Shown in pieces: positions 6,045 to 47,941 of a stretch of DNA of 64,000 bases (the first letter of the stretch is position 1; each line of letters begins with the position of its first letter). The notes beneath the pieces were generated by a model, which was not told the origin of the DNA, ran no database searches, and was given only the letters and a program-made list of their open reading frames with translations. A program made the position numbers and the translations under genes. This DNA comes from Lophium mytilinum (lineage: Eukaryota): positions 332,606 through 396,605 of the forward strand of contig MU004196.1 of NCBI GenBank assembly GCA_010093605.1. The letters run 5' to 3'.

Positions 6045-6785
6045 TCAAGGCTGTATGTTGCGTCCAGCGCCGTCCTGCGCAGCCTCCTCGGCCTCGGGCG
6101 CTCTTGGCCCGACCATCCAGTCCTCCATCGCCAGCCACTGACTCCACGTCTTCTCTGCGCCCTCGATCTCGGCCAGCTGCACGTTCTGCAGCGGCCGCAG
6201 GAACGGCACCGACTCGTGCGGGCTCATGTCGTACTGGTACTTGACCTTCGCCCAGCCCACGCTCTTGGCCGCAAAAAGGTAGTTCCGCCGTTCACACTCC
6301 TGCACGGGCCCAATCCCCTTCCGCCAGTCGTCGCCGAAGAAGCCGTGCAGCACGCCCTCGCGGTCGAAGCCCGTCACGATGAGGCGGCGGATGTACGGCA
6401 CCAGTGACACCCACATGGGCACCGAGGGGCGCTGCTGTGGGTGAGAGGGCACGGGACCGTGCCGCGGCCAGGGCATGTTGTAGGCGCCAGGCCCCGCAGC
6501 GTGCGGCGAGGGCCCTTGGGAGTTGGCGACGGGGTTGTCGCTCCATTGGAAGGGGAGGCAGATGTTGACGAGCGCGGCCACGGCCTGCACCGACGCGTCG
6601 TGCTGCGCGTGGTCGAGGAAGTAGCGCTGGCAGCTCTGGTACGCGGGGTGCCACTCGAAGATGTCGAATTGCGGGTCGCCCGTCATGCCCGCGGGAGAGG
6701 CCTCGGTCGACGACGAGGGTCCCGTGAAGGGACCGCCTCGTGCAGGATAGGATGGGTAGCCGGGGAATCCGCCGAAGAAGGACAT
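6045..6785 (-). CDS. Conserved fungal hypothetical protein, 246 aa
   Basis: Intronless ORF with high GC3. Motifs FDIFEWHPAYQSCQRYFLDHAQH and YIRRLIVTGFD..VLHGFFGDDW..GIG...ERRNYLFAAKS match a Pezizomycotina family of unclear function. Confidence 0.8.
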   Translation of the reverse strand: MSFFGGFPGYPSYPARGGPFTGPSSSTEASPAGMTGDPQFDIFEWHPAYQSCQRYFLDHAQHDASVQAVAALVNICLPFQWSDNPVANSQGPSPHAAGPGAYNMPWPRHGPVPSHPQQRPSVPMWVSLVPYIRRLIVTGFDREGVLHGFFGDDWRKGIGPVQECERRNYLFAAKSVGWAKVKYQYDMSPHESVPFLRPLQNVQLAEIEGAEKTWSQWLAMEDWMVGPRAPEAEEAAQDGAGRNIQP

Positions 6786-7613
6786 AGCATTGGTCTACAG
6801 GAGGTGGTGACGTCGTGTTCCTCTATTTAGGAGGGTGTCTAAGGCTGTCAGCGAGAAGCCTGGCCGAGAGATGCGCAATACGGGGCTCACAGGGCGTGTA
6901 TCTGGGAGGCCCTGCAGTCTGGTGTTATTCTGGACTGCCAGGACGGACATGTGCAAAGGCAATGATCAATGACGGTGAGAAGCGGGCAGGTTGTGGGGAG
7001 CATTCGAGGAGAGGGCCCAGATTTATCATTAAAAGGTCGAGGCTCCTGGAGAGCTCCGGGTTGGCCTCGGGCGCCTCCACGAGTATTATAATATTGAGTC
7101 CATGTTGGTGCACTTGTATTGCAAAGCACCCTGGCCGACAATCACGCCTCAAGTTCCCTGGAGTGCTCTGCCACTAGCCTGCCGACGGGATCGATCCAGG
7201 GGAACGGACAGCAAAACGCCGCATCAGGGCAGCCAATGCGGACAAGCAGGGCGTCTGTTGACGGGGATACCGCACGGTGGAAGTGGCTTAGGGCGGCTGC
7301 TTGGAGCCATGGAGGAGGGATGCACTTTTTTGCCCGGCTGAGGCGTGCGAGGCCTGCAGAAGGGGGCCCAAGGGGGGGACCAAGGGGGGCTGCATTCACC
7401 CAATCCCGTGAAGGGTGCTGCATACTTGGCGTATACTGGGCGTGGGCGGTGCTCAGCTGGCGCCGCCTGCCCCTCCACCGAGAAGATTTTGCCTCCAGGG
7501 CTGCAAGATGGCGCGAGAGACCGAAATCTAGGTACCCCAGACGCAGCGCCAGCATCCGGCCGATGCGCGGCTCGCTTGTCGGAGGTGCCGAGTTTGCACA
7601 GCCGCCGGAGATA

Positions 7614-9697
7614 CAGTAAAACCTGCTTATAGTAATACGGTTTGTTTCGGAGGAGTGTATTACTATACAGAGGGTATTACTATATTTAGGTTTCTTAGTA
7701 ATCCGCCTAGTAAATAATAATTAGTTAATAATATCGTGTATTCTTAACCTTCTAGCTAAAGTAGATATATTCTAAGCCCTCCTGCCCCTAAAAAAGTTAG
7801 AAATTAACATCTACTTAGTATTTTAATTAATCCTCCTTCTATATAGGCGCCGCTCGTGTTAATATAGAGAGAAAATTAAGAATAATTTACTATCCTCCTA
7901 CTACTTCTTATATAGCCTAAGAGTAGCTAATATATCTATAGCTTCTTAAAGCTTTATAGTTAGATCCTTCTACCTTCCCTTAGTATCTAACTCTTTATCT
8001 TCTAGCCTAGAATATAGGCTAGCTATAAAGGCGGTAATGTCCCCTAGGGCCTTCTAGATTTCCTTATTATCTAGGTAAATAAAATTTATAATTTCTATAT
8101 ATTACTATATTCTTTCTACTTTTTCTAAGGCATTTAGGCACTACTATATATTATCTAATAGTAGGGGTTCTATATAGTTCTTAGAATACTAAGTAGGGCC
8201 TTTATAGTTGCTAAATATAGTTAATTTAATATAGTAATTTAATATAGTAGATAGCTTAACTAGGTTCTATATAGTAATAGCCTATTAAATTACCTATAAT
8301 ACATAGATTTCCTTAAGAGGATCTTATTTCTCTAGCGTCTAATTAACTATAAAGTGTAGCTAGAAACGCTAATAATAGGCCTTAAAATTATAAATAATGC
8401 CCTAATCTATAGGCTAATAGACTAATATATAATTAGAAGGTAAAAATACTACTTTAGTATTCTTTAAGGTATTATTATTATTTACTATTTCTATAGCGCT
8501 ATAGTAAGAGCTAAAGCTATCTAAAAGAAGTAGTACCTTTCTTCTATTTACTATCTTATTAAACTACTAAAGATACGCTAGCATAACACTTCTAGTTATC
8601 TACGCCTTCTTATTATTCTTCTAGATAAAGCCTATCCCCTTAATATTTACTCCTTTTAAGCTAAAACACCGTGGATTTACTGCTATTCTAATAATCTAGA
8701 GAGGGAGCTTATAGGTTCCATTGCTATTAGCGCAATTTATAATAGTAATACATACTTTCTATTTCTTAAGGCTAGGCAGTTACTTAGTAGCTAGTATAAT
8801 CTTAGGTATTACTTTCTAAAAGAGACTATATTTATCTATATTATATATATTATATAGGTAATAGTTCTCTATTTCTTTATATATACGGCGCATCTCTTTC
8901 TTAGTATTCTTCTTATAAATAGAGCCGGCCTCTCTATATTACTTTCTTTTCCGCACGCTATTATATATCTTCTAGCCGTCTAGCTAGCTATTAGAAAAGG
9001 TAGGTATTAGCTTATCTTTTAGTTCTATAATAGATAGCTAGAGACACTAAGTGGCCTCTTATAGAAGGTCTCTAGTAATTAGAACTTAATAGCCCTATAT
9101 TATCTAATGCTATTTAAATAGGGCCTTATCTAAAATAGGCTACTTAGTAGCTCTTCTTCTCTCCCTTTCACCGTGCCCTTTTTAAAGCTTTATCCCATCT
9201 AGATGCTTATATTTTTAGCTAAGGCTAAGGGAGATTAAGGGCTGGCCGATAGAACGTTAAAACTTATCCGTAGCCCACGTAGAAAGGGCGTTTTAGTATA
9301 GATGTAGGTTTTTAGCAGTATAATTATAGATTTACTTGCGCTTAAGCTCTAAGATACTATAGCAACACTAGCAGTTAGGATTTAGAACGCGAGGTATTAT
9401 AGAATAAGGAATTAGGTGTAAAAATAATAGATATTAATGCCTTTTAGATGGAAATACAACGTTGTTTAGACAGAGGATGTAAAAAGCTGTATGGCCGGCG
9501 CGGAAAAACCGCCTCTGGATGCCCTCAAAACAGCGGTGAGCCGACCTAGTTAGTATAATATTAGTGAGCGGGGGCTAATAGTACTATAGTAAGCAGGTTA
9601 TTACTGTACTCCATACAAAAACGTATGGTTTCACAAAAAATATTACTCTATAGAGTATATTACTATACCCCCATATTACTATAAGCAGGTTTTACTG
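7614..9697 (-). mobile_element. RIP-inactivated pogo-like (Tc1/mariner superfamily) DNA transposon
   Basis: Perfect 24-bp TIRs CAGTAAAACCTGCTTATAGTAATA (7614-7637 and 9674-9697) flanked by TA on both sides. Body is AT/TpA-rich. Minus-strand DDE relics: YNIDKYSL (IYNMDETGL), KKA*IT (AWMT), RKVLLLLDSFSS and VFLPSN..VY*PID*GII (FLPPN..QPMDQGII). Confidence 0.92.
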
Positions 9698-10568
9698 TAC
9701 GCCCGTTGCTTTTCACGCCCTCTGTAGCGAGTGAGCGTCTGAGCCTGACGAAAGCGTGCAGCACCACGGAGCCTCGAGCCGAGCTCGGGACGGAAGGTGG
9801 GCAGGCATGCCAGCCGACGAATAGCAGCCGGCCATTAATACAAATTCTTGCGAACATCGGACCGCACCTTCTTTGCTCGAGGGCAGGTCGGTGTCGTCAG
9901 GCAGAACGTTGCACTCGGCAAGCCGCGTCGCAGGGCATCCAAGCTGTACGGTGGCAGTCCAACCAGTCGATGCCGTACATTGGAAGCATACCTAGTATCT
10001 CAAACAGCATCCCGCCCAAACGAACCACAGGGCGCCGATAGAACTGCTGGTGCAATCCGCGGCGCCGCCCAATAGCAGGCCGCAAAGCCACACTGCCACA
10101 CTGCCACACACGTCGCCGACCAGTACGTCACTGCAGCCACAGCTCGAACGGTGCTCCGGCGAATCACTGAGTGCCAGGCTTCACACGATGTGACTGTGGC
10201 CTCGCTGCCTCAGCTGCAGCGGTCGACGCCGCCCTCAGCCCTACACTTGAAGCGGTACGTAGTCCGTCGCCGTGCTGCCGGGAGGCTCCATCTGTGCGGG
10301 CGAAGCGAGCTGCAACACATGGCAACGTCATGGATGTGGGCGCTGGGCTGGATGGTAGTAACGCGTCCCCGGGATCAAAGCCTTCTTTCGCGCTTGGCGT
10401 CCTGTGTGCCCCGAGCATCTCCCTGGCACCAGCATACCAGCCTCCTTTCTCACCATCGGTGCAACCCCCATCCCGCAAACCCAATCTGGTTCCGCACTTC
10501 GGCCTGCCCTCTGTCAGATTGCCGAATCCATCCTCGATCTCATCCGATCCGGGCCGCATTGCTGCACC

Positions 10569-12649: not shown

Positions 12650-14219
<1,570 letters not shown>

Positions 14220-15395
14220 ATGCTTTTCAAAAATACCCATTGTAGGAATTTGACGGTTTTGGCTTGGAATGGAATTGGATTGGAGCGAGGGCTTGGAGAT
14301 ACTGTAGATACTCTTTACTCAGTTTACGAATCTAACGGATATGAATAATACGTTTCGAGTTTGTAGGTTGGTGAGTGCGCAGTGGTTATACAAAGGTAAA
14401 AGGAAAGCTCGGTTTGCCCTGAGTTGCTAGTGAAGCGCTAGTCCTTTTGAGCTCTAGTTCGTAATCCCAACGTCAGATCATCCAAAATGCACACAACGCT
14501 TGACCAATTCCTTCTGAGGCCTTCAAAACGCGCCCAGATGGTCATCTACCGTCGGACCTACACGTATCGGTGCTCTTCGTCTCCCTAGCCAACCACCTTT
14601 CCACAACCCTCGGTTTTTCGACTCCCCAGACGCGCGCGGACACGCGTCTGGGCATCACGACGGAACTAGGAACGATCCAAGGCATACTGGAAAAGGCGGC
14701 TTTGAAAAGTAGTCTTCTGTTGCGGATATGCCTTTTGCCAGACGCAGCGAAGCACGCGAAAGGACCACGACGACGTGACGCTTGAGGTGCTTTCAGACGC
14801 TGAAATCTTCTCTCTGGTAAGAGATGCAGTAGGGCGGACGAAGAGACGTCTATGATTCCATCGGCGCTCAACTTCAGACGTCCCCTTTCGGCATCAGCAG
14901 ACCTATGCTCTTGCGCGACATGCTTGTCCATACGAAGGCTTGACAGTACTATGACTCGATTCGATTGTCGCGTGCGCAAAATTTGACGCTGGAGCGTCTG
15001 ACAATAAAGCAGACGACTTTGAAGGTAGAAAGATAAAAGAAGAGCCGCTTCATATCTGGATCGGTTTCCAATAGCATATCAACGCAATATAAGTCAAGCA
15101 AGAGAGGAAAGAACCGAGTTGGCGTGCCTTCATGGCGACCTCTATCGCAAGACGGTAGGTAGTCTTTAATTTCTAAAACACCGCTATCTTTCTCTTCTTC
15201 TCCTTGCAAAATAATTTTCGAATCCTTTCCCGCAGATGCAAGCCACATCTATACACCGATGCATTTCCTGTATAACCTATACGGCCCCTCATTATAGCCA
15301 AGCTGTCCCTAAACACTGTAATATCGTCGTTTCATGCTGCTCGGTGCTAGGTTGGGTCACCCGTTGCGTGACATTCGTATCAAAATTGCTTGGCA

Positions 15396-17240
15396 TCATT
15401 CGCATGGCTGCTCAAAGACGTCGTCGAATGAATCTGGCAGTGCAGAGGTGTGAATGGGCCTCAAAGCAGTCTTGTGCATCTTCCGCCAAGATTTGATTTT
15501 CTCAAGTGCGGAGTCCGTCAATCGCACCGGTTGCTCGCTCCAGAGCCGGGTGTTTTTGGCCTCGACGCCCCAAAGCTGATCCACCTTCACGTAGGCTCTT
15601 TGAGGCATTTGCAAAGAGTCGCTACGCAACTCAAGCAGTGGCGTGTTGTCGTGGCTGAAAGTATAATCGCCCTCGATAGCCAAGTGCCTGATACGCCCGA
15701 GGAGTCCGTCTGGTCCCTCGTAGGAACTGGCAACGTCTTTATTCCCAAAGAGGCAAACCCTGAATGCTTGGATGACTCCGTCTTTCTCGCCCATGATGAG
15801 GATGGGCTTGTCGAGATGTCGATGGCGGTCTTCTGTCGGAATTTGGTCATGCAAGACCGAGTCAGGGGCAGGGTTTGAGGCGAATCGTGCGATGTCTCCA
15901 GGGATCCATGCGTTCAGGTTTGGTCCCTTTGCCTCCCGGCATACTTTACGCGATCCCTCGACTCTTCTGTTCTCCTGGTGGATCAAGGCCAACGACTCCT
16001 CGCTAATACGAATATCCACGGGGACGTAGTCGAAAATGTTTCGGTGTAGGTACTTTTGTTCGACCCGAAAGGTGGTTTCGATTTTCAGCCAGCTTAGCTC
16101 AGGCAGCATGCTGGATTTGAAGTCGTAGTATATCAGCTTGAACGGTCCTCCTTTACCATCAGCGTGGTAGAACACCATGAACCTTTCCCTAAGTACTTGA
16201 TTTTTCAGTGCGTCTTCGCGATTCTTCATGGTCGAGCCTCCAAAGGTTGTTATGGGGAGAAACGAGGCGCTTCCATCCTCATCGTGAATCTCTGTCACAA
16301 GGACAGGCCGGCCGAAGAATTTCTCTTTATCGACTTGTTGGTGGAGCATAGAACCGACTACCTCCGGCTTGGCAGCCAGCATGGCCACGGTTCCTGGGAC
16401 AAGTTGACCCGGGCGAAATTGGGCGGTAATAAATCTTCCTTGGGTCCTAGACACCCAAGACTCCTTGGACCGACCAGGTACGACCTTGTCAGCCGTTGTC
16501 ACAATAGCCTCAAGATCTAGTTTTTCGATGTCTACAACCGACCCGCCTTGGTCTAAATACAGTTCTACCGCCTTGGTGTCGACCCAGAACTTCCTCGTCA
16601 GGTTGACCCGGCAGTGTACCTGAATCTGGTTGGACTTATAAACCAGCCCCAGCGTTATCGGTGGCGGGTCGTCCGTTTTTTCCTCCTCGTTTCCGCCTCG
16701 GGCGTCTGCATCACCCTTCTCCGGATAGTCAAAGCAGTCAACCGAGTCCGCCAGCATTGGGTAAAACGCCAACTTCTGCTTAGCACGGTCGTGCTGTACT
16801 ACAATGATCGGCCCCTCCGCCAGCTTCGCCAGAGTGGTTTCGTCCACGTTGTCCGTGCAGATCCAGTCCTTCAGTCCGTTGTCGTTGCGTAGCCGGCAGA
16901 TCCGCCCTTCTCTTGGGCCATCTCGCCAGGACCTTTCGGGAAGAGATAGTGTGGTTGGGGCCGTGGGCAGAACATACGGTCGCTTCGTTGCTGCCTTCCC
17001 ATTTTGGGTAAATCTTTTCCGCTGCCTTGGTCTACCGGCCTTGGACCTAGACGGCGTGGAGGTCTCGGCACGCGGTGGGGTAGGCGGAGTCAACGGCCTG
17101 TGTGGTGGAGCCCATGGAGGTGGAGTGGAGGGTGGAGTGGGGCCTGATTGCCGCCAGTTGCTAGCCGTCGGGGCAGGAGAAGGGGTTTGCAGCTTGTGTG
17201 GTGGAATGTAGAGAGGCTGACGGGGCCCTTGCTCAGGCAT
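15396..17240 (-). CDS. Paralogue A: Pro-rich N-terminus plus three tandem PemK/MazF-like domains (614 aa)
   Basis: Long intronless ORF. Repeats include VPGTVAML..GRPVLVTEI..FLPITTFGG..RISEESLALI and IPGDIARF..KPILI..YVKVDQLWGVE..VRLTDSALEKI. Homologous to the three nearby ORFs; the fold is inferred. Confidence 0.75.
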   Translation of the reverse strand: MPEQGPRQPLYIPPHKLQTPSPAPTASNWRQSGPTPPSTPPPWAPPHRPLTPPTPPRAETSTPSRSKAGRPRQRKRFTQNGKAATKRPYVLPTAPTTLSLPERSWRDGPREGRICRLRNDNGLKDWICTDNVDETTLAKLAEGPIIVVQHDRAKQKLAFYPMLADSVDCFDYPEKGDADARGGNEEEKTDDPPPITLGLVYKSNQIQVHCRVNLTRKFWVDTKAVELYLDQGGSVVDIEKLDLEAIVTTADKVVPGRSKESWVSRTQGRFITAQFRPGQLVPGTVAMLAAKPEVVGSMLHQQVDKEKFFGRPVLVTEIHDEDGSASFLPITTFGGSTMKNREDALKNQVLRERFMVFYHADGKGGPFKLIYYDFKSSMLPELSWLKIETTFRVEQKYLHRNIFDYVPVDIRISEESLALIHQENRRVEGSRKVCREAKGPNLNAWIPGDIARFASNPAPDSVLHDQIPTEDRHRHLDKPILIMGEKDGVIQAFRVCLFGNKDVASSYEGPDGLLGRIRHLAIEGDYTFSHDNTPLLELRSDSLQMPQRAYVKVDQLWGVEAKNTRLWSEQPVRLTDSALEKIKSWRKMHKTALRPIHTSALPDSFDDVFEQPCE

Positions 17241-18451
17241 GTTTACGAGTCTTCTTCCAACTGATCTATGGCGTAAGTGTCGTCTGAGGCGATAATCGAG
17301 GGTCGATCCAAGTGGGCGACGGTAGGTGTGTTAGGAAGTTGTCAGGCTCCGGAGGCCGGCGTACGAGGTGGGAGATATTGGTATGGGGAGAATGTTTGGT
17401 AATCGAAGCGCTTATCGGTATGGAAAGACGCTGTCAAGAAGCTGGAGCATGCGTATCGAGTCAGCGAATCAGAAAGAATGTCGGATGCTGGAAGTGGGCA
17501 AGAGGTGGTCAAGCAATGTTTGAGATACACCAAAAGTGTGCGTGACTTACACAAGATACGTGCTTAGGAGGATCACAGTGGTCCAAGAGTCGGATTCGGA
17601 TTGCTTCAGGTACGTATGGAAGAGAAAGACTGGATATCTGGAGCTTGCGAGCGCGCGCCTGCTAGAACGCTGGATTGAATGAAGTAGCCTTGCGCCTACG
17701 CTCATTGAAACATTCTATGAGTTAACATCCAGGTAAATTAGGTGAATACAATGGCTAGTGGCCACGAGCGAGCTCGGTCATCCAGTGTGTGGCTGATGGC
17801 CGTCTAGTGCCGTCCGCAGCCGAGCGTGGATACGCGAAGGACCTATACTAGTATAGTAATCGCAAGCTGGCGTCTCTGAACGTTCACCGCCCGTGTCCTC
17901 TTCGGACTGTGAGTGGGAGGGTAGGGATTCAAGGTAGGAATATTGGGCCTCCACGTGTCTTTTAGTGTGTGGTGTCTTGTAAACTGGATCCATGGTTCGA
18001 TATCAATGGTAACCATGGCTTGGTGATGGTAGGACCCTGGAACCCCTTTCTTCTTACGCAACTTCACAGTGTACCAATCTCACGCAAGCGAATTAAAGGT
18101 CACGTTGAACTCCATTATACGACTTCTTGCTTCGAATTACATCAATTTACTTCACGAGCACGAGAATCTCTATTGACAAGAAGAGCATCAGCTCATCCGG
18201 CCCTCCGTCCTCGTACTCGCAAAACGTTCCTATAGTCTAACTACAAGAAAGTCCCCCCTGAAGGTTGGAGTACTAGGACATACCCGCCGCCACTCCTCAT
18301 GCCGTCCACCACATTCCTGATCTGTGTTGGACATGCATCAATGCCAACAAGTCACTGCTCACGAGCGTTAGTATGCAGAATGGCCAGCGTCGTGAGGAAT
18401 GACATACTCCCAGTGCTGTTCCCGTAGACAGGAACACGCTCGGGTCCGGAC

Positions 18452-18895
18452 TCAGTTGGTCGTGCGCGGTTTGGCATGCTCCGGCTCCTTGGTACTAGTC
18501 GGGGCCTCCGTCGTGCGAGCACCGCCACCCTCGTGCTCCGACTTCAGCTTCTGGAACTCCTGGAAGTTCTGCCAGTCCTCGTAGTCCTTGGAGTCCTGGT
18601 CGTCGCTGTCTTTGCCGTGCTTTTCGGGCTTTTCGGACTTGTCGTCCTTCTTACCCGCATTCGAGCGCTTCTCGAAGGTGGTGGGCGGCGGCGGGTGGTA
18701 GCGGTGAGGCCTATAATGGGGATCCCAGATGGGGAGGCCGTAATGTGGCGTCCATGGACGCGTGGTAGGGGTCGTGGCGGGGGTGGAGGGGGTGATTGCG
18801 CTCGCGGTGACCACGGTGGCCGCCGGCGAGGTGTGCTGGGCGGCGGTGGTGGAGGTAGCGACGGCTACAAGGCCGAGGAGGGCAAAGTTGACCAT
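18452..18895 (-). CDS. Small secreted protein (147 aa)
   Basis: Signal peptide MVNFALLGLVAVATSTTAA, Thr/Pro-rich stretch, EKR Kex2-like site and charged C-terminal half. TATATAA lies about 90 bp upstream. Confidence 0.75.
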   Translation of the reverse strand: MVNFALLGLVAVATSTTAAQHTSPAATVVTASAITPSTPATTPTTRPWTPHYGLPIWDPHYRPHRYHPPPPTTFEKRSNAGKKDDKSEKPEKHGKDSDDQDSKDYEDWQNFQEFQKLKSEHEGGGARTTEAPTSTKEPEHAKPRTTN

Positions 18896-19486
18896 TTTGG
18901 GTGGTGGGCTGGAGGCTGTTTGGGGGAGTTGGGGAGGGGTGAGTTGAGATGAGGAAGGGTTTGTGGGTGGGCGACGCTCCTTATATACTTTTTTTGAATA
19001 TTGAAAGGTGGGTAGTGTGGTTTGAATATATGGAACGTGACCATATGTTCACATAAGCGACGTAATGACAATGATTCACGAGATATAGAGCCACTGGGTG
19101 AGAAGTTTCGTCCTTGGTTGATCCCGAACATGTACCTGGAACTATCATTTGTGGCCTCGCACCATTATCAAAGTTCGAAAATCGAGAACAATGAGAGTCA
19201 ACGTAGTCTGAATCATTAGTTCAGGGGCACAGATATACAGCTGCACGGCTTCCACTCTTGCTCGCTTGACACCACTGCAAGGAGTGGCTCAGCGAGCAAG
19301 CATTCAATCAGTCCAAAGTTGATCTGAACTCAACTGCATTGACGTTGATGTCGCTTCTGGAGTTTGAAAAGTCCAATGGTGCACTCCAAGCAGTGGCAAC
19401 AGTGCCCAAACACTATAAACACCTAATCCCCAAGCTGCCGACCTCCGCTCCGGAATCGTACCAAAACTTCCACAAAATCACACATC

Positions 19487-21667
19487 CTACCGCCAATATA
19501 CTCGCGGGACGCAAGACCCAGTCTTGATCGGCCGTCCTAGTACCAACCGACCATTCAGAACCCCAATCGCGCGGTCCGCTTCTTCCTTCGTTGGCAGCTC
19601 GACGAAGCAGAACGATGGGTTTCGGCCAGCGACGTGGTCCCAGTCCATTAGTATGCGCTTGACGGTGAAACCGCTCTTGGTGATCAGAGCATGGACATCC
19701 GATGCCTTTGCTTTGTAGATAAGACTACCGATGTAGATACGGCAGCCGCTCGCGTTGTCGTCGTTGGTGTTATCGGTTAGCGCTAGGTTGGTACCGTCAG
19801 ATTCGCAGTGTGTATGGGAAGATGGTTTCGTCGGAGGGGCTGCGGGTGGCGCTTCAAATGCTGCAGGTGGTCGAGACAAAGGAGCATACTGCGTGGAGCC
19901 TGATAGCATTGATGGAGTAGGAGAATGCGTAGGCAGTTTATGTGGGACGGGTGGCTGGAAAGTATCCTGCTGGGTTACCTGAGTCTGCTTTGCCCATCCT
20001 GGATGTTCGACCGTCTCCGGAGCGTTCCCTTCCTCCTCGTCCGACATCGATACTGCTAGTCCGGGAATGTACGGATGCTGCCCACGGATGGCATCCATCG
20101 TCTCCGAGAGCATGTCGGAACCGTACAACAGGTACTGGATTCGGTAATCCTGGAGAATCTTCACCTCACCAGCAGCTAGATGTATAGGCGTCGTACTCCA
20201 AGCTTTGAGGTTTGTATATTCGACCCAGTATTCCTTGTCGACTTTCACGTAGCAGAGGCTACGGAATTGCGGAGATCCCGACTTAAGCTTGAGTATCGGA
20301 GCGAAGTCGTGGGACTGAGCACCAAATCCATCGATCGCGAGGCTAGATGTCGGAGGATAACCTCCCAGACAATTGATCCGAGTGATAGGGTCCTGACTGT
20401 TGTTCCAAATCACGTGGACTTTGACCATCCCGTTGACCTTACCCGTTACTAGGCAAGGCAACCCGAAGATGTTGATGGTGTCATCTTTCGTTTGCGCGTG
20501 CAGCACAGATGGTTCGCTCAGGACAGGCGGCAAGTAGCAGACGAACCCTTCTTCAAAGTCCCTCCATCGAAGTGGTCGCCCTTCCCCGCTAATGATCGTA
20601 CCCAGTGGATGCTCCTGTACTATGGCAGCTTGGGCTCTCAGACTGTTCAATGACTCGGCATCGAGAACGATCTTCTTTGAGCTGTCCCCATCTGGCCGGA
20701 AGAGTTTGAGGTACTTGGCTTCGATACGGTACTTGGTGATCAGCTGAACGAAAGTTTGCTTTGTCAATCGCCCCGAGTACATCCCCTTCCCTACGCCAGG
20801 AGTTACCACCTCAAACCCATGGTCCTTCGACTTGATCTTGTCCTGCAGTAGCACGTACTGCTGTCGCGACACGCGGTTGAAGAATCCATCGGTTTTCGTC
20901 TGAGCATTCAACTCTTGGACTGTCCTGTTCCCCATGGTCGTCGAGATGACGTAGAAAGACACTATCCCAGTCGATACTTCAAAGTCCGCAATCAACGCTG
21001 GATGGTGGAAGAATTCCTGTCTCGTCTGCTGCTGGAAGATGATCGAGTCTGGCGCAATCGATGTCTTCGGCGGAAGCCAAGCCAGAGTTCCTGGAACCAG
21101 CATGTAGTACTGTTGCAGAACCTCCAGCGAACGACCCTCGAGAAACAGGGGGGCTACAAGATCTGGGGTAGATGATCTTCGCTTCCACGTCTTCCACTCG
21201 GTATAGGGCAGTAGGAACTCCGTCTCAACTCGATACTGCTTCCGGATGTCCACCCACTGCACGGACCATGGCTTGTTTGACGAGCGTCCGTACTTCAGCT
21301 CCTTGGATTGCATCTCCGGATCGTGGTATGGGCTCTCCAGTGGAAGATACCAACGACCACTCTGCGCTACTTCGTCTATCCCTGGGCCGCCGTTCACGAT
21401 TGGTAGGAAGGAAACCATGTTTCCAGTCCCCCAAACTTCCATCACCACTACTTGGTTTCCATAATGCATGTCTGGAAGCTCTTGGCTCGGGAGTAGCGGC
21501 TTGTGGATTACTCCTTTCTGGGCGAGGGTGTGGATGGTGCCGCAGCGGATGCGATTGTCCATGTTGGCGAGGTGCTGTGCCATTGTAGCAGGTGGTGTAA
21601 GCTGTATGTTGTTGTGAGCTGTGTTTTTGTGTTTCTTGTGACTGGGGCTCAAGCGAAGATCTTTCAT
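19487..21667 (-). CDS. Paralogue B: three tandem PemK/MazF-like domains plus C-terminal RRM (start may be the ATG at 21583)
   Basis: VPGTLAWLP..HHPALIADF..FYVISTTMG; YVKVDKEYWVEYTNL; RRM with RNP2 RIYIGSL, RNP1-like NPSFCFVEL and EEADRAIGVLNGRLVLGRPIK. Confidence 0.8.
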   Translation of the reverse strand: MKDLRLSPSHKKHKNTAHNNIQLTPPATMAQHLANMDNRIRCGTIHTLAQKGVIHKPLLPSQELPDMHYGNQVVVMEVWGTGNMVSFLPIVNGGPGIDEVAQSGRWYLPLESPYHDPEMQSKELKYGRSSNKPWSVQWVDIRKQYRVETEFLLPYTEWKTWKRRSSTPDLVAPLFLEGRSLEVLQQYYMLVPGTLAWLPPKTSIAPDSIIFQQQTRQEFFHHPALIADFEVSTGIVSFYVISTTMGNRTVQELNAQTKTDGFFNRVSRQQYVLLQDKIKSKDHGFEVVTPGVGKGMYSGRLTKQTFVQLITKYRIEAKYLKLFRPDGDSSKKIVLDAESLNSLRAQAAIVQEHPLGTIISGEGRPLRWRDFEEGFVCYLPPVLSEPSVLHAQTKDDTINIFGLPCLVTGKVNGMVKVHVIWNNSQDPITRINCLGGYPPTSSLAIDGFGAQSHDFAPILKLKSGSPQFRSLCYVKVDKEYWVEYTNLKAWSTTPIHLAAGEVKILQDYRIQYLLYGSDMLSETMDAIRGQHPYIPGLAVSMSDEEEGNAPETVEHPGWAKQTQVTQQDTFQPPVPHKLPTHSPTPSMLSGSTQYAPLSRPPAAFEAPPAAPPTKPSSHTHCESDGTNLALTDNTNDDNASGCRIYIGSLIYKAKASDVHALITKSGFTVKRILMDWDHVAGRNPSFCFVELPTKEEADRAIGVLNGRLVLGRPIKTGSCVPRVYWR

Positions 21668-22955
21668 ACGGGAATTGTCTGCGAACTTTTAAGGTGTTCT
21701 AGCGGCTTCGAGAGGGAATTGGGTTGCTTGTGTGGTGTGCTGAAGGCGGGTGGCTTTGTGGGAGCAAGCAGAAAGGGCAGTTTGTCTATGCTAGGTGCTA
21801 GTTCCGCTGGTTAGTAGAGGTCGTGGATGAATGAATCAAAGGATTTCACCTTGCTGCTTGGTTAGCGTGTAAAGTAAACAGTGGTGCGTGTTACATTCGA
21901 TCCGAGCTTAACCCGTGTTGAGGTGCTCCCAACGACGCCTCTCAGGTGTAAAACAAGGACGCAAAGCGGCTTGAATCGAAGTCCGAGACTCTCGACCCAC
22001 ATCAAGGACTACATGATACGGCTAAGAAGTTTAGGAGGCTGAAATCATAGTTGTAGATCTGGCGGCCCGAATTGTAGGACTGTAAACTTACATCTTATGT
22101 TTCACTTCTGGAGCGCGCTCAAGTACTTCTTACGGCGTTGCGGCGTCACCAAGGATGAGTTGTTTGAGAGACGATATACACTACACAGAAATTAACTAAA
22201 CATGCCCCCAAGAAAAGATCTTGGAGAAGACTTCCTTGAGTGAATTGCAAGTGATACAATACCAGGCCATGAGTTTGAACACAGGAATATCACTGCTTGA
22301 GTACCGCTTTTGCACGCTGGTTGCTACTGTCAGAGGTAGCCCCATCGCGAGTATAGCTTATGATCAAGAGGAAGCTCAGAATACACTGTCTACAACTTGA
22401 CATCACGCCTCGATTGTGGTCACCCCATGGGCCCCCTCCTGGTAGTGGTGAAGCACTGTGTACAGAGCTATGGCTTGTCACTGTAGTTGTACAGCAAGCG
22501 GTAGGTCACTTCCCTTTCAGAAGGTGAAGATTAACAATGAGGCAAATGAGATCTCCGGTCAGACATATATGGATCAAAGCTGAAGTCTTTAGTTCAGCCT
22601 ACCGCATACCCAAAGACGTGGCACGCAAATCGAGTTCATGCGCCTGAGAACTTCAGGTATTGTTGTCATAGTAACCAGGATATAGAAGTTCCCATTTGAA
22701 TCTGAAATACTACCTAAGCATGGGCCTTGGAGTTCCCCTACGTGATCTACAGCCCACGCCAGAGGCCGCAAGACACTCCAAAAAGGCTGACATTCCACCA
22801 GAGCATGCTCAAAAAGGGTGCCTTCTCTACTCCATCGGAAAAAAAAATATCAAGATAGACCCACATAAGCCACAATACTACAATACGAGCAGCTACCACG
22901 TAGCAACAGGAATTGGGCCTCCATGGGGCCGCGCCTTGTCTTGTGTTGTGCACGG

Positions 22956-24938
22956 TCAATTCTCCCAAAAGAAGTTTACAATCCTCTCTTGGAACAATTG
23001 AGGTCTATTATCCGCACCTCCTTGGCTAGGCTGATTACCTAGGAATGGCGCCCCAGCGCTCGTGGTTCTAGGGGGAATATAAGGTGACGAGATATTAGTT
23101 GAGTATTGAGGAGGTTGACCGCCTTGATTCAACACTGGCATCCCGAATGGTCCATAAGGGGGTCCTTGTGTGGCATGAGGATGAGGCGTAGGCGCATATA
23201 GACGAGAAAATTGTGCGGGCCCTGGAGCCATAGATCCCGAACCAAATGTCGCTTGCCCTGTGTGCTGGTGAGGCCACTGGTGCTGGATACTGACTGGCAG
23301 CTGCGGCGGCCCTCCGTAGGTTTGGTGAAAGTGTTGATTGTAATGGTCGTGGCGGAGACGAGGTGTGCCCTGGAAGTTAGGTACGGTCTGCTGTACCCTA
23401 GTAGGGCCACTGTGTTGCTCATTTTCTTGGCCGTATGGCATCGAAACTGCCAGTGCGTGGCAGAATGGATGATTTCCGGCGAGGGCCTCCTCCGTTGACT
23501 TCGATATCACGGTAATGTCAAGATGATGTCGTCGTCGATACTCCCGAATAGTCTCCAACGCAGATGGGTCTAAGAAAACTGGAGTCGGACTCCACGCTCG
23601 GAGATTTATGTACTCGACGTAGTAGTCTTTCTCAACTATAACGAAGGTCAGCTTCAGCGTCTGAGGCGATCTGAGTCCCAGGTTCAGAAGTGGGGTATCG
23701 TCATGAGCTTTAGCACCATAACCCTCAATTGCAAGGTACACACTACGTTCCCGGCGATCTGTCACTTTGTTTCCTGGGAGCGCTGTTGTGATTGGAATTT
23801 CACCAAATGTCCGCATCGGTAGCACTCGCACCATGCCGTTCTTTTTCCCAGTAACGAGACATGCGCGTCCGTATATGTTGATCTTATTCTGTGCAGTTTG
23901 TTCATGCAGAACGGTCGGATTCGGAAGGTGATCGGGTAAAAGATAGACTTTGCCATCCTCTATTTCTTCCCATCTTGGTGGCGCATCCGGTACGGCCGTA
24001 GGTGGTCTCATCAAGGGGTGTGCCACAGCAAGTGCCTCTTGTGCCCTGATTAAATCCAAAGACGCGTCGTCGAGTATGATACGGTCCTTGTTTCTGCTGG
24101 GGACACTAGAGCCGAGGTAGATGTACTCAATCTGAAACTTTTCCTTTACGTTCAAGAAGCTCTGTTTAAATAAGGGGGCGGAGTCTTCCCTCAGAACGGC
24201 GACCTTGAAGCCGTAATCTACGGAGTTGTCTTTTTTGTCCACCAGAACGAGATACTCGTCTCGTAAAGCGCGATTGAAAAATTTATCAGATGCCCTCTCT
24301 GTATTGATCTGCTTGAAGGTCTTGTTGCCCATTGTCGTGGACAGGTGGAATGTTACAATTCCCGAAGTCCGGTCGAACTCAGTCACTACCACAGGCCGAC
24401 CAAAGATTTTGGAGTAGGCGACTTGTTTGAAGATGATAGAGTTAACATGGATCTGCTCTGATTGGGGAAGCCAGACCATGACCCCGGGTGTGTAAACCGC
24501 GAAAGCATTCAATAGCTCTAGGCACTGGCCAGACAAGATCGTAGGATGTATCGAAAAGGGGCCGTCTGGTTCAATGTATTGACGAAGGAATATCTCTTCG
24601 ATTTCGTACCGCTTTCTGATGTCTACCCATCGTGGAGCCCATACTAACCTCGACTGTGGGGCAAACGCAATCTGCAGCGTGGCACTCCCATTGCCTTTGT
24701 AGTGCCCCTGGAGGCTCTCAAGAGGAAAATACCAGCGATGGTCATTTGGTCTCTCCTGAGCGTCGGGTATTGCGTCTGCGTCGCACAGGGTGGGATATAT
24801 CGTCGCAATGCTGGTGTGATGCCCTACTACCACTACCGGATGGCCATAGTATTGCGTCGGTAGGCCTTGCGCAGTGAGGGTAGACTTCTTCATGTCTTCC
24901 TTGTGGAGCCAGTAGAATTGGCCGATTTGGGTCGCCAT
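22956..24938 (-). CDS. Paralogue C: three tandem PemK/MazF-like domains plus Q/P/G/Y-rich low-complexity tail
   Basis: First ATG is at 24938. IGQFYWL..GHPVVVV; TPGVMVWLP..GRPVVVTEF..FHLSTTMG; DGKVYLLP..GRACLV..VLPMRTFG..HDDTPLLNL. Colinear with paralogue B. Confidence 0.78.
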   Translation of the reverse strand: MATQIGQFYWLHKEDMKKSTLTAQGLPTQYYGHPVVVVGHHTSIATIYPTLCDADAIPDAQERPNDHRWYFPLESLQGHYKGNGSATLQIAFAPQSRLVWAPRWVDIRKRYEIEEIFLRQYIEPDGPFSIHPTILSGQCLELLNAFAVYTPGVMVWLPQSEQIHVNSIIFKQVAYSKIFGRPVVVTEFDRTSGIVTFHLSTTMGNKTFKQINTERASDKFFNRALRDEYLVLVDKKDNSVDYGFKVAVLREDSAPLFKQSFLNVKEKFQIEYIYLGSSVPSRNKDRIILDDASLDLIRAQEALAVAHPLMRPPTAVPDAPPRWEEIEDGKVYLLPDHLPNPTVLHEQTAQNKINIYGRACLVTGKKNGMVRVLPMRTFGEIPITTALPGNKVTDRRERSVYLAIEGYGAKAHDDTPLLNLGLRSPQTLKLTFVIVEKDYYVEYINLRAWSPTPVFLDPSALETIREYRRRHHLDITVISKSTEEALAGNHPFCHALAVSMPYGQENEQHSGPTRVQQTVPNFQGTPRLRHDHYNQHFHQTYGGPPQLPVSIQHQWPHQHTGQATFGSGSMAPGPAQFSRLYAPTPHPHATQGPPYGPFGMPVLNQGGQPPQYSTNISSPYIPPRTTSAGAPFLGNQPSQGGADNRPQLFQERIVNFFWEN

Positions 24939-26508
24939 TTCGGGTATTGTGGTCACCTTTTCTGAGGTATGGTATGGTCGGAGTGGTGTGATGGGACAAC
25001 GAAAGGTGGCAGGGAACGTAGGAGATGGTTTGTTGGCGTTGAACTTTGTGGATAGTGGTGGGAGGTTTGAAAGGTAGCAGAGGTTTGTTTGTTGTGATGT
25101 GCGTAGTTGATGATGATGTGCTTATGAATTTAGGAGGAATTTAGGTAGCCGTGAAGACGCAGATAAATACCAAGGGAAAAATTCACGCCCAAGCACACAT
25201 CGCTGTCACTGAATGTGTAGTTCACTGGCTCGCATCCTAGTACCTTCATGCAGATGAGCTCCCTCTATAATATCTCTAAAGCAGTAGGCGAGGTTTTATG
25301 TCCGCTACAGGCGTTCCGATGCCAACGAAGTGGCGAAGTCACGGATCTAGTATCTGAGCTTGTTGATCTTTTGGAGCTTCCGTTTTTGCTGCAACTATCA
25401 ACTAGGCGCTTGTAGTATTGGCCGGGCTCATGAACTTTCTCTAGCCTGGCGTGACGGCTATCGACGCTGCTGGCGAGGCTATGCTAGAGAGGCCTATTCG
25501 TCGCTACACAAAGTAATGCAGGATTCATCTGAGAAGAGGGGTCTTTAGGATAATGGCGAGGATTCCTTTGATAAATAAAAGCTGTTCTGCAATCATCCGC
25601 GGAAATGGGCGTCCACTGGTAACCTGAGAAAGGCAGCGTTTCGACGACACCCCGGATTCTTGACAGACCGATGATTTCTGCTATTTCTCTTGATCAGCGG
25701 GAGTCATATATGCGGACGAGTGAGATTTGTGCCGAGCTGATTGAGTTGGGAGTAATCTGCTATAGATTCGGACTGACTGCGATGCGGCTTCATCACGGAC
25801 CGCTTTGACAAGGAGTAAGTCCTACAGTTTGGCCACGGCAAACCTACTAGCACAGAAGGACGCTTGAGCTTTCTGGCATGCATGAAGGCACTGCTGTGGC
25901 TTCCTTCACTACTCCTACCTATATGCATGCTAATGGAAGCACCTGGACCGAGCACGTCTATCCAGGCACCACAACACCTAGCCGTTCAACTTGTTGATCT
26001 AGTTAGTGCACACTCGGCCAGCTCAAATACTATCTTAACAACCACTCAGCTCCGATTGTGCTTGCCCTCGAGCTCCCTCTTACCCATTCCTTATATAAAG
26101 CGGCTCAGTGGAGATCCAGGAAAGCTAGGGGCAGTCGGGTAGCAGAGGGTGGACTCTGGAAAGATATCTTAAAGGTCAACAATCGCCACCAGTTGTGAGT
26201 ACACAAGGCTTTCATCTCTTAGTACCTTCGACTTCTCCCTCGCGCGTGCAATCTTGTTTTAACTTGTTAAGCGTCCGTCCAGGCACCAACACTGCAAATA
26301 TCTACCGTGGCTTTGCTTCCATACCTCCTCACCTCCTCGCCTTTTTCATATACTGACCATCGTCCTTCCAGCACGCTGGATACCCTAGAAAACGCTTCTT
26401 GCACTAGCCTGTCCGAATTGGCCATAGCAAAATACTTCCTCGGATGGACGATCGTTCATACAGCTTTGATCGCATGAGACAAAAGCTAATGTTTCTCCCT
26501 CCGGAAAA

Positions 26509-27696
26509 ATGGTCACCCCAAACCATGTCTACTGGCTCCCGATATTCGATAATATCCCGCGGGACTCGATCATACATCGACAAGTTGTGGGACACCAAGG
26601 CTTCTTCAACCATCCTGTCCTCATCCTCGAATTTGACGAAGATCCCAATATTGTCTGCTTCCTTCCTTTGACGACTTTCCGAGGGAACTACGGAACAGGC
26701 CCTACGCCTTTTGACATACGGGTGGAGTACATCGCTATTCAGGGCTTGACTAGCCCACCCGATGATGAGGTCAAAGTCCAAGTCGCGCCCGGCTCCCCTC
26801 AAATGGTCGAACGAACTTGGATGAAGATGGAAGTCTTCCGGATCGAGGCGGTCAACCTCCAACAGTACCTCCGGAAAACAGTCGAAATTGACGCAAATGG
26901 AATGGATGTAATCCGGACACGTTTGAGACAGCTGGCTATAACGCCTGGCGCAGTCATGCAAGTGCCAGAGGAGACGACCATTGGAATAGACTCTGTACTT
27001 CACACGCAAATCGGGGACGAAAGGGAGGGGTATTCCATCCTAAACCATCTTGCGGTTGTACTCGAAGTCAATGGTGGGTATGCTCGCTTCTTACCTATCA
27101 CGACCAGAAACATTAGTCAGGCGGGCATATCAAAGGGCGTTCAAGCTAGGGGATTTCGACAACAATACCTGCTTATTTCTAACACAGCGGTCGTTGGCCA
27201 TGATGGTACGCCTGTGCTGAACCTCGACCGAATCTCCTCCCCTCTGAGCCAGGACGTCTACGTAAAGACAGGCAAGTCTTACTGGATCGAAATCGGCCGA
27301 CTGAAGTATTATCAATTCCCCTCGGTGAGGCTCGATCCCCTCTCCACCCGCGTGCTTCTCAACTACTATTTCCCGTTCATTCACGATCGCACGCTGGGTT
27401 CATATCTTGGGAGAGCACCATCGCCGAGCCTGGATCAACTGCCCTCAGATCTGCCGCGAGACCAGGCTGATATGGCGCCTATCTTGCAGCATCAAGGGGG
27501 CCCTGAAAAGCCTCAAACGCCTCCTAGCGCTGCTTCTCTCGAGACTCGAAATCCATTCCTCCCGGTCTACCCCTTAGAGTCGGGCCCGATTCAGGAGGTT
27601 CAACAGCAAGAACAAGCCCCGAACCCGTATCGACCTGTATTTCCTGCGGAAGAAGCAGAGGCCTTTAATCCGTATAGACCAGTCTATCCTGATTGA
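26509..27696 (+). CDS. Paralogue D: two tandem PemK/MazF-like domains plus Pro-rich tail (395 aa)
   Basis: TPNHVYWLP..NHPVLILEF..FLPLTTFRG and TPGAVMQVP..NHLAVVLEV..FLPITTR..HDGTPVLNL..YVKTGKSYWIE. Divergent from paralogue C. Confidence 0.75.
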   Translation: MVTPNHVYWLPIFDNIPRDSIIHRQVVGHQGFFNHPVLILEFDEDPNIVCFLPLTTFRGNYGTGPTPFDIRVEYIAIQGLTSPPDDEVKVQVAPGSPQMVERTWMKMEVFRIEAVNLQQYLRKTVEIDANGMDVIRTRLRQLAITPGAVMQVPEETTIGIDSVLHTQIGDEREGYSILNHLAVVLEVNGGYARFLPITTRNISQAGISKGVQARGFRQQYLLISNTAVVGHDGTPVLNLDRISSPLSQDVYVKTGKSYWIEIGRLKYYQFPSVRLDPLSTRVLLNYYFPFIHDRTLGSYLGRAPSPSLDQLPSDLPRDQADMAPILQHQGGPEKPQTPPSAASLETRNPFLPVYPLESGPIQEVQQQEQAPNPYRPVFPAEEAEAFNPYRPVYPD

Positions 27697-28331
27697 CGAG
27701 GTGGTAGCGGTGCTGAGGAGGGTCAGAGGCATCTTGTTGGCGATCAAAAAGGATCATCCTCGTTTCTAATCTGGTGGCTTTTCGTCCTCTATTTTGCCTT
27801 CCTTCTGATTCGTATGCGATTGTAGGAATAAAAACATCTGGCAACATTAATCAGGGTGGGAGCTTCTGGAGTCGGACAGCCTATTGCTACCGTTAGAGAT
27901 CCTCCATACTACTCAAAGAATTGTGCCGCGTTGTTGATAGTCTGACGCCGTAAACTGGGGGTACTTGGAGACGATGCGGGGATGGGATGGTATGCAGTTA
28001 AGTTGTGAATACGAGGTTGTAGCGTGCCGTAGCACGGCATACGACAACCACTCACCGACCACATCTCTAGGGGCAACGCTTCTGTTTTGACCACCCCATC
28101 ATCTCCGCAATCCTTTCCGTCTGCTCACTACTCAATATTGCGCCTGCTGCAATCATCATCCAAATTAACACTCAACGCTCTCTGCTATAAAATCAATAAA
28201 CCATCATATTTCCTTCTTCACCACAATCGCACGTTGGTACAGCAGGATTCCTGTGCAACACCGCCGCATTGCGAGACTCCACGCGAGAAATTCCCCAATA
28301 CATGCGATAGCATTCCAGTACCTTGTCTGGC

Positions 28332-47046: not shown

Positions 47047-47124
47047 GTTGAGACTGGATCTCTTGATTCCTCTACCATGTTCAATCCGAAGTCGTGTCGT
47101 TATTCTCATTGCTGACTACGTTGA

Positions 47125-47775: not shown

Positions 47776-47941
47776 GGAAGAATTGTAAACGATAACTAAA
47801 GGCCCTTAGATTGGTTTTTTTTCATTCGGCGTTTGTATGACTTTCCCGTGTCAGCTCAGAGTCATCGTCACAAATAACTAACTCAAACTCACTATGACTC
47901 ATCCCTTGAGGCCGTTATACGTGTTCCAAAAAACAAAAGAA

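Follow-up and report, generated by a model that had tools for sequence, protein, structure and literature searches.

The locus spanning positions 15,396 to 27,696 of the analysed stretch of Lophium mytilinum DNA (64,000 nt, hereafter the window) raised the question of whether a eukaryotic genome could encode proteins built on the fold of bacterial toxins such as MazF. A preliminary description had presented it as a cluster of four intronless genes with about 11 copies (3+3+3+2) of a toxin-like unit. Uninterrupted ORFs of the standard code were found at exactly the coordinates proposed for these genes, here named A to D (Table 1), and they were confirmed to be paralogues assembled from units of ~150 aa. 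Namely, all six pairs of the four proteins were significantly similar by BLASTP, from B and C, the strongest pair quoted (34% over 600 aa, E 1e-94), to A and D, the weakest (24%, E 1.7e-13). The internal repeat was visible as matches that were off register, such as residues 440-603 of A to residues 4-154 of D (E 1e-5) and residues 48-324 of B to residues 16-269 of D (E 1.8e-6). A six-frame HMM scan revealed no extra copy of the unit elsewhere in the window. The flanks of the four-gene region, which had the same GC content, contained an NADP-glutamate dehydrogenase (GDH) gene and a DUF3405 gene; thus, the earlier placement of the cluster between housekeeping genes was clearly right for the former flank only.

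Table 1. Coordinates of the genes, units and other features of the locus (positions in the window)
Feature	Position	Strand	Description
Paralogue A	15396..17240	-	uninterrupted ORF, 614 aa
A unit 1 (aa 105-272)	16425..16928	-	degenerate; without the H/R-P...T pair; region conserved in P0155
A unit 2 (aa 273-428), N-type	15957..16424	-	R311-P312, T331-T332 at the MazF Arg29/Thr52 positions
A unit 3 (aa 440-592), C-type	15465..15923	-	SHDNTP motif; pair replaced by K and C
Paralogue B	19487..21667	-	uninterrupted ORF, 726 aa
B unit 1 (aa 37-188), extra N-terminal X-type	21104..21559	-	pair lost
B unit 2 (aa 189-352), N-type	20612..21103	-	H222-P223, T243-T244
B unit 3 (aa 362-516), C-type	20120..20584	-	SHDFAP; pair replaced by L and W
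RRM of B (aa 644-715)	19523..19738	-	Pfam RRM_1, NCBIfam Rbp_regulator
Paralogue C	22956..24938	-	uninterrupted ORF, 660 aa
C unit 1 (aa 1-148), X-type	24495..24938	-	H33-P34 retained, Thr lost
C unit 2 (aa 149-306), N-type	24021..24494	-	R181-P182, T201-T202
C unit 3 (aa 322-482), C-type	23493..23975	-	AHDDTP; R358-A359; R376-T377 at the Thr positions
Paralogue D	26509..27696	+	uninterrupted ORF, 395 aa
D unit 1 (aa 1-144), N-type	26509..26940	+	H35-P36, T55-T56; best structural match to MazF
D unit 2 (aa 145-296), C-type	26941..27396	+	GHDGTP; H180, T198-T199 still present
Antisense intron 1	27095..27168	-	74 nt, GT..AG, within the coding region of D; joint in an X3 contig; splice and branch-site letters read
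Antisense intron 2	27838..27890	-	53 nt, same X3 contig, just downstream of the D stop codon

The units were counted with HMMs built without the protein under test, which recovered three units in B, three in C, two in D and two in A (i-E 1e-12 to 1e-32). The remaining copy, A unit 1, gave only a partial match (aa 196-245, i-E 1e-3, 5 bits) and reached 11.5 bits (i-E 0.015) against an HMM of 67 family units. Ten of the proposed copies were thus firm, and the eleventh was marginal and degenerate. The strings previously quoted for A were all found in its translation (GRPVLV at 310-315, FLPITT at 327-332, ISEESLALI at 412-420 and VKVDQLWGVE at 551-560), as were the quoted MazF strings in the mazF sequence of E. 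coli K-12.

The units were combined with different tails in the four proteins. A began with a Pro-rich tail bearing two SWR/NWR motifs, followed by the degenerate unit and the two firm ones. C had three units followed by a C-terminal tail rich in Gln, Pro and His, and D had two units and a tail carrying NPYRPV(F/Y)P repeats. In B, a Pro/Ser-rich linker connected the three units to a C-terminal RRM. This domain matched the full-length PF00076 (RRM_1) model (1-70) with an E-value of 1.2e-5 and a score of 25.5 bits, above the cut-off of 20.7, and the NCBIfam Rbp_regulator domain with an E-value of 3.8e-10 and a score under that model's own cut-off; it was the sole NCBIfam match in A-D. The idea that the RRM belonged to a separate downstream gene was rejected since the ORF was continuous and an independent gene model of B (P0003, 698 aa, identical from M29) included PF00076. 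Orthologues of A (P0155, 46% identical), C (P0002, 69%) and D (P0154, 76%) were present in Mytilinidion resinicola, where all three shared one contig.

Transcription was assessed with the RNA-like contigs of run X3. Their RNA status is a guess and not on record; we accepted them as RNA because the GDH gene showed GT..AG joints and the depth differed from gene to gene. Both A and C were transcribed: one unspliced contig (14504-18770) spanned A, and another covered the C coding sequence continuously and without joints. No X3 contig was found over the region holding B (~19296-22736), and the run contained no sense-strand RNA for D, the only spliced RNA across this gene being antisense (minus strand). 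Together with the degenerate A unit 1 and the modest identity of the A orthologue, this antisense RNA might suggest that the ORFs have lost their function or are in decay, for instance as relics of an element gained by horizontal transfer. We regard this reading as barely credible since four long ORFs (395-726 aa) were uninterrupted, their orthologues were intact in another species, the motifs were conserved, the GC content equalled that of the flanks, and RNA contigs covered A and C.

What fold the units might adopt was addressed by structure prediction. The AF2 model of residues 1-296 of D, based on a 25-sequence alignment, contained two units in one chain (pLDDT 88.8, pTM 0.73), and D unit 2 modelled alone reached a pLDDT of 92.4. 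In a Foldseek search of the PDB with the two-unit model, 34 of the 35 rows listed CptN or a MazF-type toxin, at prob 1.00 and TMt 0.50-0.69; the best E-value was only 3.1e-3, and no Foldseek match in these analyses reached 1e-3. Similarly, ranks 1-15 of the VIA search with D unit 2 were all MazF, Kid, CcdB or type III toxins, so that the MazF/CcdB superfamily occupied ranks 1-12 and 1-15 with two separate models. In the single-unit search, the top score was 9.5 and the superfamily ended at 5.6, compared to 5.0 for the next group. The matches extended over 88-119 residues and took in nearly the entire toxin chain with its C-terminal helix, whereas generic barrels matched over ~50-70 residues. 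Thus, the predicted structures of both unit types resembled MazF, Kid and CcdB before anything else in the PDB, as the preliminary description had anticipated; its central idea thus withstood the structural refutation that it had itself proposed, and the units are predicted to share the CcdB/MazF superfamily fold, an SH3-like barrel with a C-terminal helix.

Sequence evidence for homology to MazF was weak. When ten units were aligned by hhalign with 17 MazF/ChpB sequences, the probability was 16.8% (pairwise E 0.0015, 41 columns). The register chosen by this weak alignment coincided with the one read earlier from the motifs G-x-h-h-W, (R/H)P-hhh and TT: PGxVxWL was paired with GDLIWV, fgRPVvV with hRPAVV (Arg29), and lpiTT with vPcTT (Thr52). 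Larger profiles kept this register and added the C-terminal helix at probabilities of only 3-4%, and a profile of C-type units aligned with MazF out of register (0.6%). The Pfam PemK_toxin model (PF02452) matched none of the four whole proteins at E<=1, none of the ten units at E<=10 and none of the 27 homologues at E<=0.1. Neither DUF6590, for which a comparison had been advised, nor any other Pfam family matched the units. PADLOC gave no match for A-D. A search of PDB sequences with the 10-unit profile found no MazF, and its best hit was a designed WD-like repeat protein (E 0.029, 24 residues).

These results bear on the idea that the resemblance to MazF arose by convergence or from a prediction bias towards small barrels, in which case the units would be an unrelated SH3-like barrel born in fungi, with no mechanistic link to toxins. 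The hhalign probabilities of 3-17% and the lack of HMM matches to the units in Pfam, NCBIfam and PADLOC would fit this explanation. However, we consider it improbable given the near-complete span of the structural matches, the consistent ranking of the superfamily with two models, and the gap below it in the single-unit search. Moreover, an independent sequence register placed the two most conserved motifs on the two essential residues of MazF. We therefore infer homology to MazF rather than convergence.

An Arg and a Thr are essential for cleavage by MazF and are widely conserved (Ec Arg29/Thr52, Bs Arg25/Thr48), according to PMC10893535. In the D model, H35 opened the second strand and T55 closed the third; a basic residue followed by Pro and a Thr would take the places of the essential MazF residues. 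At the positions given by the low-probability hhalign register, and not by superposition, Thr was present in 33 of the 35 N-type and single units. Arg was found in 4 of these 35 units (including A2 and C2), the other 31 having His. The following Pro was conserved in 34/35 units, and residues specific to the family were Ser20 (32/35), Gln25 (33/35), Ser96 (30/35) and Glu113 (34/35; D numbering). The pair was mostly lost in C-type units (n=29), with Ala in 17 and Lys in 19 at the respective positions, and these units had an HDGTP motif of their own. The pair was retained by only one unit per protein in A, B and C and by two in D.

The same motifs argue against a CcdB-like action, in which A-D would bind or poison another protein, for example a topoisomerase, instead of acting on RNA. 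CcdB, a gyrase poison, is not known to be a nuclease or to carry the Arg/Thr pair. Since the conserved fungal motifs align with the catalytic positions of MazF, the MazF and Kid chains outscored CcdB (PDB 1vub) in both structure searches, and the RRM fused to B points to RNA, we find this reading very hard to sustain.

A more serious alternative, which we nevertheless hold to be doubtful, is that the units are non-nuclease modules binding RNA or protein (pseudo-enzymes or adaptors), with H-P...T and HDGTP serving binding or stability. The replacement of Arg by His in most N-type and single units and the loss of the pair in C-type units would be in line with it. An unrestrained toxin would also seem to need an inhibitor, and we found no such partner: none of the 85 ORFs of at least 45 aa between or beside A-D matched any Pfam model at E<=0.01, and the larger neighbouring genes were likewise without an antitoxin match, although an inhibitor of a novel kind or within the same chain might exist. 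In addition, the presence of RNA-like contigs of the sequenced culture or sample over A and C suggests that expression is tolerated. On the other hand, the pair positions were near-invariant across proteins only 23-30% identical, and if the units only bound RNA, the separate RRM in B would in part duplicate their role. Metal-independent RNases, RNase T1 and barnase among them, moreover typically use His and Glu as acid/base residues, which also speaks against mere binding.

We therefore favour, as the probable explanation, that A-D are single-chain MazF-like pseudo-dimers acting on RNA and belong to a rare fungal family with the MazF/Kid(PemK)/CcdB fold. Bacterial MazF is a homodimer of one ~110-aa domain, and two fungal units per chain would mirror this arrangement, with A, B and C each carrying a further unit at the N-terminus. 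The N- and C-type units of one chain would pair intramolecularly and hold one composite RNA-binding site, most likely that of a sequence-selective, metal-independent endoribonuclease. The RRM of B might strengthen binding to RNA or help in targeting it, and regulation or localisation might come from the disordered tails. A complex prediction with D units 1 and 2 as separate chains, run without alignments or controls, scored 0.00 and was evidence neither way.

Compared to MazF and Kid (PemK; PF02452; PDB 4mzm, 5cr2, 1m1f), the fungal units had the same order of motifs. However, the fungal genes were eukaryotic and had no detectable HMM-level membership in the toxin family, and their units were longer (~150 aa), with insertions, among them a helix that carries the conserved Ser20 and Gln25 and lies in the loop joining strand 1 to strand 2. 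Furthermore, two or three units occurred per chain and had differentiated into an N- and a C-type, His usually stood at the Arg position, long disordered tails and one RRM fusion were present, and there was no MazE/PemI-like neighbour. The type III toxins ToxN, AbiQ and CptN (PDB 4ato, 4glk, 4rmo) were nearer in size to the fungal unit but are bacterial or phage-defence proteins, and they differed from the fungal genes in having an adjacent tandem RNA-antitoxin array. TRF found no ToxI-like repeat array between positions 14000 and 29000, where only two 12-nt arrays of 2.2 copies were present, both inside coding sequence.

To our knowledge, the MazF, Kid and CcdB toxins are regarded as a prokaryotic and plasmid invention. 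Our literature search found no paper describing this fold in a protein family of fungi or any other eukaryotes, nor any mentioning DUF6590. Since the predicted shape matched MazF and the fold was undescribed in fungi in the literature searched, A-D may represent a novel type of RNA-targeting protein in eukaryotes. If so, the MazF-type RNase fold would extend to eukaryotes, and a homodimeric toxin would have been turned naturally into an asymmetric single-chain enzyme. The proteins would then be candidate effectors for mycovirus control, incompatibility, drive or stress-induced mRNA decay; even as inert binders, they would form a new domain family meriting a database entry.

A more specific and rather unlikely scenario is that they descend from toxin-antitoxin RNases, or are the analogues of these in eukaryotes, and have been domesticated as single-chain, self-contained RNA-cleaving effectors of fungal conflict or immunity (antiviral defence, allorecognition or toxin-antidote drive) and restrained in cis or by RNA. 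No separate antitoxin protein would be involved in this case. Candidate restraints would be the disordered tails, in which SWR motifs recur, the C-type unit, which would be catalytically dead, and, for D, the spliced antisense transcript running through the gene, and the clustered single- and two-unit paralogues of other fungi could be interacting partners.

The distribution of the family was examined with 27 homologues found by phmmer, six proteins found with the family alignment, and metagenome contigs scanned with a narrower alignment. The family was rare (29 representative clusters), and its named members were only Dothideomycetes, its breadth resting on Mytilinidion and Ophiobolus as the two genera identified by name. 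Related loci retrieved from metagenome contigs had eukaryotic neighbours, and clusters of single-unit and two-unit paralogues occurred in other fungi. According to the phmmer matches and a quick tree, D fell in a widespread two-unit lineage. Gene contexts, unit architecture and the unit tree thus agreed with the initial view of a eukaryotic, tandem-fused and locally expanded family. Since the quick tree grouped units by position, the data fit a history in which fusion came first and whole genes were duplicated later. An ancestral homodimeric form would likewise fit, because the single-unit relatives retained the H-P...T motif.

The four neighbouring paralogous genes A, B, C and D were present exactly where the preliminary description had placed them, each as one uninterrupted ORF. 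All six pairs were significantly similar by BLASTP, including B and C (34% identity over 600 aa, E 1e-94) and the weakest pair, A and D (24% identity, E 1.7e-13). Moreover, some matches were off-register (A 440-603 against D 4-154, E 1e-5), and only a unit of about 150 aa repeated within the proteins can produce them. Eleven hand-cut units aligned with MAFFT shared the pattern PG-x-V-x-x-LP...S-h-h-H-x-Q...(H/R)P-V-L-V...F-L-P-h-T-T...S...h-x-h-E...L. To avoid circularity, each protein was searched with HMMs from which all of its own units had been excluded; three units were recovered in B, three in C, two in D and two in A, with i-E values from 1e-12 to 1e-32. The first unit of A gave a 5-bit partial match only, and reached 11.5 bits (i-E 0.015) with a family HMM of 67 units, which found no further copies in all six frames of the window. 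Thus, ten of the approximately 11 units originally proposed were firm, and the eleventh was degenerate.

Coordinates of the genes and other features (loci L006, L008 and L011 lie on metagenome contigs)
Feature	Position	Strand	Remarks
A	15396-17240	-	614-aa uninterrupted ORF, standard code
B	19487-21667	-	726-aa uninterrupted ORF, standard code
C	22956-24938	-	660-aa uninterrupted ORF, standard code
D	26509-27696	+	395-aa uninterrupted ORF, standard code
SWR-type motif in A, copy 1	about 17142-17162	-	aa 27-33
SWR-type motif in A, copy 2	about 16914-16934	-	aa 103-109
D tail	about 27496-27693	+	aa 330-395
NADP-glutamate dehydrogenase (GDH)	about 12.8-14.2 kb		just upstream of cluster; Pfam
DUF3405 gene	28.3-30.8 kb		just downstream of cluster; Pfam
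147-aa ORF	18452-18895	-	between A and B
AT-rich island	8001-10000		no ORF of at least 130 aa
P450/Rieske/dioxygenase group	45118-51450
X3 contig over A	14504-18770		no joints
X3 contig over C and D	22736-27950	-	two introns
Intron 1 of antisense contig	27095-27168	-	GT..AG, canonical on inspection, 74 nt
Intron 2 of antisense contig	27838-27890	-	GT..AG, canonical on inspection
L006 (= L013)	single-unit 2663-3454; two-unit 5080-7089
L008	single-unit 1799-2527; two-unit 3880-5685
L011	single-unit 472-1506; two-unit 5557-7275

The repeat unit was not recognised by profile searches of Pfam, NCBIfam, PADLOC or PDB sequences. An AlphaFold2 model of D aa 1-296, built from a 25-sequence alignment, had a pLDDT of 88.8 and a pTM of 0.73, and 34 of its 35 Foldseek rows against the PDB were MazF-type toxins or CptN (prob 1.00, TMt 0.50-0.69; best E-value just 3.1e-3). 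Since unit 1 took up the Foldseek list of this two-unit model, unit 2 was also folded alone (pLDDT 92.4, pTM 0.86), with a Foldseek result in agreement. The models thus gave both unit types the CcdB/MazF toxin fold as a high-confidence prediction, and the MazF/PemK-like fold first suggested from sequence was upheld by these structural matches. We consider this fold assignment very probably correct. The likeness probably also reflects homology with the CcdB/MazF superfamily, convergence being a minor alternative.

The proposed motif register against MazF was the one chosen by hhalign, albeit at a low probability (16.8%; pairwise E 0.0015 over 41 columns), when the unit profile was compared with 17 aligned MazF/ChpB sequences comprising E. 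coli mazF and its relatives. In this register, PGxVxWL fell on GDLIWV, fgRPVvV on hRPAVV, and lpiTT on vPcTT. Profiles built from more units (35 N-type, or all 67) gave the identical register and also aligned the C-terminal helices, at a probability of only 3-4%, and the C-type profile alone was misaligned. Cleavage by MazF requires a widely conserved pair, Arg25/Thr48 (B. subtilis) or Arg29/Thr52 (others; PMC10893535). At the aligned positions, a pair of His or Arg with Thr was nearly always kept in the N-type units and mostly lost from the C-type units, which carry an HDGTP motif.

Residue counts in 35 N-type or single units and 29 C-type units (D numbering)
Position	N-type/single (n=35)	C-type (n=29)
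H35 (Arg29-equivalent)	His 31, Arg 4	Ala 17
P36 (next Pro)	Pro 34	Pro 24
T55 (Thr52-equivalent)	Thr 33	Lys 19
S20	kept 32	Ser 6, gap 20
Q25	kept 33	Gln 9, gap 20
S96	kept 30	Ser 27
E113	kept 34	Glu 9

Within the window, the pair was complete in the second units of A (R311, T331), B (H222, T243) and C (R181, T201) and in the first unit of D (H35, T55). The second unit of D kept H180 and T198. The third unit of C kept R358, with A359 replacing Pro, and its Thr position was occupied by R376, followed by T377; the first unit of C kept H33-P34 alone. The pair was absent from the first and third units of both A and B. The proteins would have one conserved putative active site each, located in the N-type unit.

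The best-supported reading was a fungal family in which each protein would be a MazF-like pseudo-dimer within a single chain, or a pseudo-trimer in the case of A, B and C, and would act on RNA. An RRM formed the C-terminus of B within the same ORF (Pfam RRM_1, E 1.2e-5, above the cut-off); the region was also matched by an NCBIfam RNA-binding domain (E 3.8e-10) and included in an independent gene model. We slightly favored RNA as the ligand of these proteins, and their cleavage of it is a more tentative proposal, the main rival being that the units form a non-catalytic binding module. CcdB-like poisoning of a protein target and gene decay were minor alternatives. By sequence, the units were not members of Pfam PemK_toxin, and the genes were without the operon partner that defines toxin-antitoxin modules: no antitoxin-like ORF lay between or beside A-D, where none of 85 small ORFs matched Pfam, and no RNA repeat array was found there. 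Accordingly, we described the family as working or folding like MazF rather than as MazF.

No account of a MazF-fold family in fungi or other eukaryotes emerged from the full-text literature searched, though InterPro/Gene3D annotations or AlphaFold DB cluster papers might already flag it, and a 2008 survey reported no eukaryotic MazF-type matches in its categories (PMC2446400). What appeared new was the occurrence of a known toxin fold in another kingdom, its fused and asymmetric arrangement, and the fusion to an RRM.

With D as the phmmer query, just 29 of 1.84 billion representative proteins matched at E<=1e-3, most with two units and a few with one; none of the 27 matches other than the window proteins had a Pfam domain above threshold. 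The closest named relatives were 'uncharacterized' proteins of Mytilinidion resinicola, namely P0002 (69% to C), P0154 (76% to D) and P0155 (46% to A), and one partial protein of Ophiobolus disseminans also matched. Since the three M. resinicola genes were on one 1.68-Mb contig, the cluster was older than the split of two Dothideomycete species. A scan with a narrower alignment gave 11 loci from metagenome contigs, whose neighbours encoded eukaryotic domains (protein kinase, RGS/DEP, SET, MFS, DUF1996). Among the five distinct loci with 3.7 kb or more of sequence upstream, three had a single-unit paralogue that kept the H-P...T motif and lay upstream of the two-unit gene, 1.6-4 kb away and in the same orientation. 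The two may form a conserved gene pair, and this adjacency indicated that local clustering was not peculiar to the window.

When 67 units were placed in a quick maximum-likelihood tree (SH-aLRT supports), they clustered by position, with those of A, B and C as sub-clades within each position and those of D in the widespread two-unit lineage; every window unit paired with an M. resinicola orthologue. This grouping fits a history in which a single fusion of two units would have been followed by divergence into an N-type unit that looks catalytic and a C-type unit that is degenerate, gain of a third, N-terminal unit in the A/B/C lineage, and then local duplication of whole genes.

All four proteins had low-complexity tails. 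That of D carried repeated NP(F/Y)(L/R)PV(Y/F)P motifs, kept in P0154. A short motif, [S/N/D]-W-R-x-x-x-[P/S], recurred in Ser/Pro-rich N-terminal tails, with three copies in each of the three single-unit ORFs (L006, L008 and L011), two in A, and one each in P0155 and P0014; it is a candidate regulatory linear motif.

Contigs of sequencing run X3 were RNA-like: the GDH gene showed GT..AG joints, and depth differed gene by gene. They spanned A and C without joints, which supported the claim that the genes are intronless for these two of the four. One minus-strand contig extended from C upstream through all of D, and its canonical introns identified it as a spliced transcript antisense to D, whose frame the 74-nt intron would disrupt. 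This transcript could represent a long 5' leader belonging to C, or else a non-coding RNA in its own right. The X3 contigs yielded no RNA from the sense strand of D.

Pfam matches in the window (Med5, NADP-glutamate dehydrogenase, DUF3405, Zn2Cys6 transcription factor, P450 and others) were those of a fungal genome, and the GC content of the cluster (0.49-0.54) matched that of its flanks. The 147-aa ORF between A and B had a signal-peptide-like N-terminus, a Pro/Thr-rich stretch and then a charged body, with no Pfam match; its portion up to 18770 lay under the same RNA-like contig as A. With a GC content of 0.36, against 0.50-0.60 in the surrounding sequence, the AT-rich island is possibly a repeat degraded by RIP. 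Farther along, cytochrome P450, Rieske [2Fe-2S] and ring-hydroxylating dioxygenase alpha-subunit ORFs lay close together, with a carboxylesterase, a Zn2Cys6 regulator and an FAD monooxygenase beyond, and this P450/Rieske/dioxygenase group is a possible gene cluster for catabolism or secondary metabolism.
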